A stretch of 64,000 nucleotides of DNA, taken from the sequence record PQ666540. One strand, written 5' to 3'. Position 1 is the first letter of the stretch, and each line of letters starts with the position of its first letter. Under the pieces are notes generated by a model, which had not been told where the DNA came from, made no database searches, and was given only the letters and a program-made list of their open reading frames with translations. This document shows positions 54,568 to 54,625 of this stretch, one piece after another. The translations under genes and the position numbers were made by a program. This DNA is from Shigella phage sb2.

Positions 54568-54595
54568 TTTCTGTTCCTCCGTAGTTGATAGTTGT

Positions 54596-54625
54596 ATAGT
54601 ACCACAGAGGAACAGCCTTGTAAAC
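54596..54625 (-). promoter_or_regulatory. T4-type early promoter
   Basis: GTTTAC (54620-54625), TGg + TACTAT (54596-54604); embedded in 9-bp inverted repeat. Confidence 0.65.

Follow-up and report, generated by a model that had tools for sequence, protein, structure and literature searches.

Does an inverted repeat that spans an early promoter of a T4-like phage, and takes in the Shine-Dalgarno (SD) sequence of the gene behind it, govern the translation of that gene, and if so, from which transcripts? The question is raised by a locus at 54571-54625 in a window of 64,000 nucleotides from Shigella phage sb2 (PQ666540), the window being the whole stretch of DNA analysed here. The genome is of the Tequatrovirus (T4-like) type, and its region 53000-57000, where nrdC.6 to nrdC.11 are all encoded on the minus strand, shares 95–99% identity with hundreds of T4-like phages. 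The gene under the control of the promoter cassette, nrdC.8 (54040..54567, minus strand), encodes a protein of 175 aa and unknown function. It is preceded by nrdC.9 (54628..54930, minus strand), the TAG stop codon of which lies 3 nt from the -35 element of the nrdC.8 promoter, with AAAAAATTGTGAAAGAAGTTTCTTTTAG upstream. No terminator was found between nrdC.9 and the cassette in a scan of 53500-56300, and no T4-type promoter belonging to nrdC.9 was seen upstream. As no terminator intervenes, transcripts of nrdC.9 would have to enter the repeat, and, judging from the sequence, so should transcripts that start at the early promoter at 56064.

Organisation of the nrdC.8 promoter cassette

The promoter of nrdC.8 is a textbook T4 early promoter (GTTTAC-N14-GTGG-TAnnAT). 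Its -35 element GTTTAC (54620..54625, minus strand) is separated by 18 nt from the -10 box TACTAT (54596..54601, minus strand), with GTGG ahead of the -10, which makes it an early promoter of the sigma-70 type (GTTTAC-N18-TACTAT). The homologous site in phage SA20RB carries a T4 early promoter annotation, and the T4-type -35 and -10 boxes together with this annotation bear out the claim of an earlier note on this DNA that the repeat lies within an early promoter. The 9-nt arms reported in that note are exactly in place, CTGTTCCTC at 54571-54579 and GAGGAACAG at 54607-54615, as are those of a second copy at 3234-3278; they do bracket the -10 (TACTAT, 54601-54596), and the downstream one extends over GGAGG (54580-54576).

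Read on the minus strand, the order of elements is GTTTAC (54625-54620)-AAGG-CTGTTCCTCTGTGGT-ACTAT...-ACTACGGAGGAACAG-AAA-ATG (54567) or, with the -10 kept whole, GTTTAC AAGG CTGTTCCTCTGTGG TACTAT ACAACTATCA ACTACGGAGGAACAG AAA ATG. The cassette thus runs from an AT-rich upstream region through the -35, spacer, -10 and conserved CTATCAACTAC leader to the SD and ATG. The 5' arm of the hairpin, CUGUUCCUCUGUGGU (54601..54615, minus strand), lies in the promoter spacer and reaches over the extended -10 motif GTGG as far as the first T of the -10 box. The loop of 15 nt (54586..54600, minus strand) holds most of the -10 box and the putative transcription start, which from sigma-70 promoter geometry would fall at about A 54589, 7 nt past the -10. 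The 3' arm, ACUACGGAGGAACAG (54571..54585, minus strand), contains the SD of nrdC.8, GGAGG (54580-54576, minus strand). The carrier of the anti-SD sequence is the promoter spacer itself.

Predicted folding and exposure of the SD

In the sense RNA the predicted stem comprises 15 bp, including two G.U, and joins 54615-54601 to 54585-54571 around the 15-nt loop. The 9-nt arms of the earlier note are real, but they are only part of this longer stem, which in turn lies within a shared cassette of 63 nt. Folding energies are -26.8 kcal/mol (z -5.9) for the nrdC.8 copy, in which four flanking pairs lengthen the stem, and -23.2 kcal/mol (z -4.1) for the copy upstream of ndd.4. Because two of the pairs are G.U, the antisense RNA folds about 8 kcal/mol more weakly (-15 versus -23 kcal/mol for the sense RNA).

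The 9-mers alone are not beyond chance, since repeats of this kind are common in the shuffled window: there are 32 perfect 9-bp inverted repeats with loops of 3–40 nt in the window versus 16 +/- 4 in shuffles. The significance of the 9-mer repeat by itself was accordingly rejected (approx. 16 expected per window).

What is exposed depends on where the transcript begins. In the read-through context the SD is fully paired, with a predicted probability of being unpaired of 0.00, a degree of masking matched by at most 1% of composition-preserving shuffles of the spacer. The RNA made from the embedded promoter would not be able to form the hairpin, because the 5' arm sits upstream of the start, in the -35/-10 spacer; its leader of 22 nt is predicted to be unstructured (0 kcal/mol), with the SD unpaired at a probability of 0.76 for nrdC.8 and 0.85 for ndd.4. 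The sequestration of the SD proposed in the earlier note thus holds, in these models, for read-through RNA from the upstream gene and is limited to it; for the promoter's own mRNA (0.76–0.85) it does not hold.

Two other identities for the element were considered and rejected. Rfam gave no match in the window as a whole at the gathering threshold, nor any in 54300-54900 at E<=1, so a known RNA family was set aside. An intrinsic terminator was dismissed on account of the sequence after the stem, AAAAUGAAC / AAAAUGAACGC, which contains no U-tract, and of a negative terminator scan; the classical T4 terminators in the window look different (GGGCCGAAGCCC followed by a T run).

Terminator-like repeats are found elsewhere in the window. 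The sequence AAGGGCCGAAGCCCTT, followed by a T/A-rich stretch, is present at 4878-4905, 34583-34610, 39293-39320, 42932-42959 and 10150-10180, these copies being families D5, D9 and D10 of our repeat search. A 31-nt repeat, TTTTGAAATAAAAAAGGGAG(A/C)..., occurs at 1-31 and at 56080-56110 with 87% identity; the latter copy is the terminator upstream of the nrdC.10 promoter, and the repeat recurs at the start of the window.

A paralogous cassette upstream of ndd.4

A search of the whole window for the motif, as the earlier note had suggested, yielded two near-identical copies and a wider family. The second copy (3228..3288, minus strand) is located 5' of ndd.4, a 37-aa membrane ORF of the ndd-denB region that follows the cassette at 3234-3288. 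Its parts, all on the minus strand, are the -35 (3283-3288), 5' arm (3264-3278), -10 (3259-3264), 3' arm (3234-3248) and ATG (3230-3228); the pair of 9-nt arms is identical to that of nrdC.8 (3234-3242 / 3270-3278), and the AT-rich/stop-codon layout is as at nrdC.8. The two sites are one cassette of 63 nt (promoter, leader, SD and ATG) with 90% identity.

Furthermore, the two sites appear to have exchanged sequence. Among IMG/VR contigs with swapped loop/-10 variants (L063/L008 and L060, that is, 2974787500 and 2974742932), L063/L008 carries nrdC.8 with an ndd.4-type loop (TATTATTACCC), and L060 carries ndd.4 with a loop of the nrdC.8 type. The swap indicates gene conversion or recombination between sites approx. 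51 kb apart, or exchange between phages. With 90% identity over 63 nt and swapped loops, the two copies were rejected as independent evidence, and the argument of the earlier note that recurrence at two unrelated genes speaks for function is weak in that form: what recurs is one paralogous cassette, the loops of which have been swapped between the sites. Independent support is given by the variants, sister class, spacer-SD pairing and analogues described in the next two sections.

Next to the ndd.4 copy, an 87-aa ORF (RB69ORF270c-like; 3474-3737 of the window) is present here and lacking in T4 (L064, 2500-2560). The junctions of this indel lie in the interior of the leader of a neighbouring promoter cassette (after CTATC) and at ATGAAAATCGCTGAG, and by its sequence it looks like a cassette exchange of the type described below for promoter-early stem-loops. 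The nrdC.8 site itself showed no indel.

Conservation and covariation

Recurrence of the motif and its conservation in related phages, on which the earlier note had made its proposal depend, were both observed. The cassette is present in >500 Tequatrovirus records, with 4–9 matches in each of the complete genomes listed, two excepted. Within the nrdC.8/ndd.4 class we compared 10 distinct variants, including T4 nrdC.8 and T4 ndd.4. Cells of the alignment were paired in 96.7% of cases, versus 37–59% with the partners slid. Ten pairs of the stem are invariant among the 10 variants, and all three variable internal pairs (3/3) alternate between C-G or G-C and G.U; two basal pairs are broken in some phages, the stem of T4 nrdC.8 being 13 bp. 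No double compensatory change was found among the 10 variants of this class, the changes being wobble switches only.

The nrdC.8 promoters of other genera likewise have a hairpin around the -10, with unrelated arms. The Dhakavirus promoter (AUCUCCAGUAG / CUACUGGAGGU) includes the SD in another register, with arms unrelated in sequence; in the Mosigvirus-like promoter (GGUCUAUGGU / AUUAUAGACC) the -10 is within the 3' arm and the SD is free; and in Gaprivervirus a 13-bp stem has the -10 in its loop, the SD again being free.

With a pattern blind to the arms (-35, -10 and leader CTATCAACTAC), 90 loci were collected from viral and metagenomic collections. Across 31 clusters, the summed energy of the cognate spacer-SD duplexes was -287.9 versus -229.6 +/- 12.5 for non-cognate ones, an excess equalled by 2 of 50,000 permutations, and eight clusters have strong spacer-SD duplexes of differing sequence. 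An 11-pair helix with a compensatory U-A/A-U pair (5 versus 4 sequences, never mismatched) is shared by a sister class to which T4 denV belongs; its covariation score of 0.172 versus 0.092 was equalled by 2 of 500 shuffles, the sets of sequences used for covariation being small and made up of related sequences. The sense fold was stronger than the antisense fold in 20 of 45 cassettes, a comparison that is uninformative across all classes because the stems of most sister classes are perfect Watson-Crick helices; the asymmetry is seen in the nrdC.8/ndd.4, Mosigvirus-like and trna.4-type classes.

Stems at other early promoters

Analogous arrangements occur elsewhere in the window. At motB.2, the early promoter at 13468 (13405..13468, minus strand) has a spacer, CCUCGGUUAGUUGUGGU, that pairs with ACCAUAGCUACUGAGG, the SD being inside; at modB, with its early promoter at 18662 (18600..18662, minus strand), the -10 region pairs with the SD plus AUG. 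These two analogues are unrelated in sequence, and in both the SD is predicted to be fully paired when the RNA reads through from upstream, and open when transcription starts at the promoter itself. A weaker SD-masking analogue belongs to the promoter at 29763. In T4, SD-masking stems were found at denV, regB, nrdC.8, modB, motB.2 and ndd.4, with a weak one at e.8; in NC_000866 (loci L109/L110) the ATGs are at 65355 (denV), 62740 (regB), 13130 (modB), 8161 (motB.2) and 53885 (nrdC.8), and ndd.4 is in L064.

Other stems engulf the -10 and leave the SD more open than in shuffles (dmd, mobD.2, ipI, ipII, e.7 and trna.4), and the distribution of T4 stems between SD-masking and SD-sparing looks bimodal. 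In the window, stems of 15 or 13 bp around the -10 with an untouched SD lie at 24256-24294 (dmd), 59103-59141 and 12325-12363 (z -4.2 to -4.9). In roughly half of the hairpins embedded in promoters of these phages the SD is left out, and no enrichment of SD inclusion was demonstrable among hairpin-bearing promoters, of which about half include it. Judging from these sequences, masking of the SD is a property of a subclass and not of every promoter-embedded hairpin, and because about half of them spare the SD, the masking may be a side effect, with selection acting on the hairpin for some other purpose.

The promoters at 59953, 56064 and 20767 (minus strand) have a classical terminator, a GC stem plus T run, directly 5' and no embedded hairpin; those that abut the upstream ORF often contain one. 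A link between the hairpin and the lack of an upstream terminator (3/3 versus 7/~13) is, with such small numbers, suggestive only.

A weak promoter-like site at 11728-11770 (minus strand) has a spacer, AUCAGUAGUUGAU, complementary over 13 bp to the leader AUCAACUACUGAU; the stem of this cassette pairs with the conserved leader, not with the SD.

Comparison with known systems

The nearest relatives of the element are the PeSL (promoter-early stem-loop) cassettes of T4-type phages (Arbiol et al. 2010, PMC2839356; Comeau et al. 2014, PMC4122927). In these, too, an AT-rich region abuts the upstream stop, and it is followed by a sigma-70 early promoter, a G-T-paired stem-loop, an SD and an ATG; they are repeated in plastic regions, among small genes of unknown function, and their copies exchange sequence. 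The T4 ndd.4/ndd.5 locus compared with PST is itself a published example (Fig. 6A, PMC4122927). At nrdC.8 we found an early promoter (for PeSLs, of the sigma-70 type with -35/-10 boxes at 17–18 nt), the upstream-stop layout, a stable stem, SD and ATG at the 3' end, and repetition with exchange; the sequence thus points to a member of this known family, not to a new kind of element. In the PeSL papers, five positions of the stem are distinguished, and the stems are taken as terminators or attenuators and as recombination sites (PMC2839356, PMC4122927). The stems were reported to lower the expression of a downstream reporter like a strong terminator, and PeSLs are documented sites of recombination, with crossovers between the -10 and the SD (PMC2839356, PMC4122927). 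The stems of PST and T4 are, however, placed 'just upstream of the promoter' in these papers, which neither describe a stem from spacer to SD nor discuss translation. The nrdC.8 stem is nearest to the published subclass 'overlapping the -10', yet it extends further.

A second comparison is with T4 e, soc, 49 and I-TevI, which have a hairpin-masked initiation region with an internal promoter (Uzan & Miller 2010, PMC3014915). As at nrdC.8, the SD is masked in long transcripts, and the RNA from the internal promoter, which does not have the 5' strand, is the one translated. In silico, nrdC.8 agrees in that its SD is paired in upstream transcripts and that its internal promoter drops the 5' strand. 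It differs in the promoter, which for those genes is late (TATAAATA, gp55) and delays expression, whereas that of nrdC.8 is an immediate-early one of the sigma-70 type; the predicted effect, in contrast to the late lock, would be to restrict nrdC.8 expression to the very first minutes and to shut out read-through RNA. On the predicted structures, the element would work like this family without being a member of it.

The SD of nrdC.8 is also of interest as a substrate of RegB, which cuts GGAG in early SDs (Durand et al. 2006, PMC1702504); the GGAG of T4 nrdC.8 is cleaved moderately in vivo, and the SDs of motB.2 and regB are targets as well (PMC1702504). The 3' arm of the hairpin has GGAG followed by an A-rich tract, and GGAGGAACAGA agrees with the RegB consensus GGAGRAYARAA at 8 of 11 positions, departing from it at 7, 8 and 10. 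The element is nonetheless not defined by RegB, since the hairpin would shield GGAG rather than present it, and the GGAG is predicted to be single-stranded in the promoter's own transcript only. Because RegB needs a single-stranded GGAG, moderate cutting would fit a mixture of open and closed RNAs; the departure from the consensus can also explain it. The regB gene is described as requiring tight control, with a promoter that is off after 2–3 min and an SD that RegB itself cleaves; in T4, regB bears one of the SD-masking stems. The moderate cutting at nrdC.8 and the control of regB are both consistent with the reading favoured below.

Promoter-coupled terminators (Fletcher et al. 2026 preprint, 10.64898/2026.08.19.745784) are likewise stem-loops overlapping a promoter between tandem genes, but the nrdC.8 stem has no U/T-tract and encloses the -10 instead of forming the -35. 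An early promoter inside an SD-masking hairpin was not found described in the literature searched, a search that covered work other than the older T4 promoter papers.

Alternative explanations

The hairpin might have been selected only as a PeSL attenuator or terminator, or to protect the 3' end of the nrdC.9 message, with the involvement of the SD being incidental because the intergenic space is too short for the arm to lie elsewhere. The reported effect of PeSL stems on downstream reporters, comparable to that of a strong terminator, is in its favour, as are the nrdC.8 promoter stems of other lineages, which keep the enclosure of the -10 and spare the SD, the roughly half of promoter-embedded stems that leave the SD free, and the absence of stems from the terminator-preceded promoters (59953, 56064 and 20767). 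At nrdC.8, however, the stem runs into AAAAUGAAC with no U-tract and the terminator scan was empty at the site; anti-SD arms have arisen in several unrelated sequences and registers; and a helix of -23 kcal/mol over the SD would block initiation whatever had been selected. We regard this explanation as unlikely, while allowing it an appreciable chance. Distinctly less probable is that the repeat has no function at all, pyrimidine-rich spacers simply meeting purine-rich SDs in a cassette that was duplicated or gene-converted to a second site. It is true that both copies are one paralogous cassette exchanging sequence, that 9-bp inverted repeats are frequent by chance and that TTTCC/TTCCTC is a common start among T4 early spacers, but the cognate spacer-SD pairing exceeds the non-cognate pairing of the same composition, composition-preserving spacer shuffles seldom mask the SD, the changes observed are wobble-preserving or compensatory, and the 15-bp stem is kept across hundreds of genomes.

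A role at the level of DNA, as the binding site of a dimeric regulator, a cruciform or a preferred recombination site for the shuffling of cassettes, seems a shade more doubtful again. The cassette as a whole is clearly a recombination substrate: crossovers between the -10 and the SD are documented for PeSLs, loop variants have been swapped between the nrdC.8 and ndd.4 sites, and the ORF indel beside the ndd.4 copy has a junction within a cassette leader. Recombination, however, requires only homology and not self-complementarity. The two G.T positions spoil the symmetry of the duplex DNA and favour the sense RNA by approximately 8 kcal/mol, a 15-nt loop is unfavourable to cruciform extrusion, and no single protein could recognise arms that are wholly different between classes. 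We give least credence to translational coupling, in which ribosomes that end nrdC.9 would melt the hairpin and enable the initiation of nrdC.8 on polycistronic RNA. A stem-masked SD just past an upstream stop is the classical layout for it, but here the 5' arm starts 12 nt past the nrdC.9 stop (17 nt at ndd.4), a gap that equals or exceeds what a terminating ribosome can span, the SD is another 35 nt downstream, and nrdC.8 has a strong promoter of its own.

Proposed mode of action and its implications

We favour, at a probability of roughly 0.55, a reading in which only RNA from its own immediate-early promoter would allow nrdC.8 to be translated; the gene would be silent on read-through RNA, and the upstream unit insulated from it. 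RNA polymerase arriving from upstream, on the nrdC.10/nrdC.9 transcripts, would copy both arms, and the resulting 15-bp hairpin would bury the SD, so that no ribosomes would load on nrdC.8. In the folded RNA the GGAG would be shielded from RegB. The untranslated stretch of nrdC.8 would probably be open to Rho or nucleases, and the upstream unit may be insulated from nrdC.8 for that reason. Polymerase initiating at the embedded promoter would start within the loop and produce an RNA that has only the 3' arm, with its SD open. Thus nrdC.8, and likewise ndd.4, would be translated solely from an immediate-early promoter that is active for a few minutes, in a lock that mirrors the one established for the late genes e, soc, 49 and I-TevI of T4. 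This is not a new principle, as both ingredient mechanisms are already known in T4.

More tentatively, and somewhat short of even odds, anti-SD sequences in early-promoter spacers may be a general 'immediate-early lock' of T4-type phages, used in T4 by a subset that comprises regB, modB, denV, motB.2, nrdC.8 and ndd.4. If so, the genes of this subset would be silent on delayed-early or middle read-through RNA and RegB would then clear the open transcripts, a mirror-image counterpart of the late lock that acts on e and soc; such a lock would also explain the co-evolution of spacer and SD and the mobility of the cassettes as self-insulating units. In practical terms, stems of this kind would have to be weighed in predictions of phage early-gene expression and in the re-use of these strong promoters. 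PeSL cassettes would gain a translational role beyond those of promoter, terminator and recombination site. Should the hairpin indeed act on read-through RNA, it would be a simple, sequence-encoded means by which a densely packed phage genome makes small early genes autonomous and insulated units, limited to the first minutes of infection, and the nuclease RegB and the ADP-ribosyltransferase ModB would be among the predicted T4 targets of such control.
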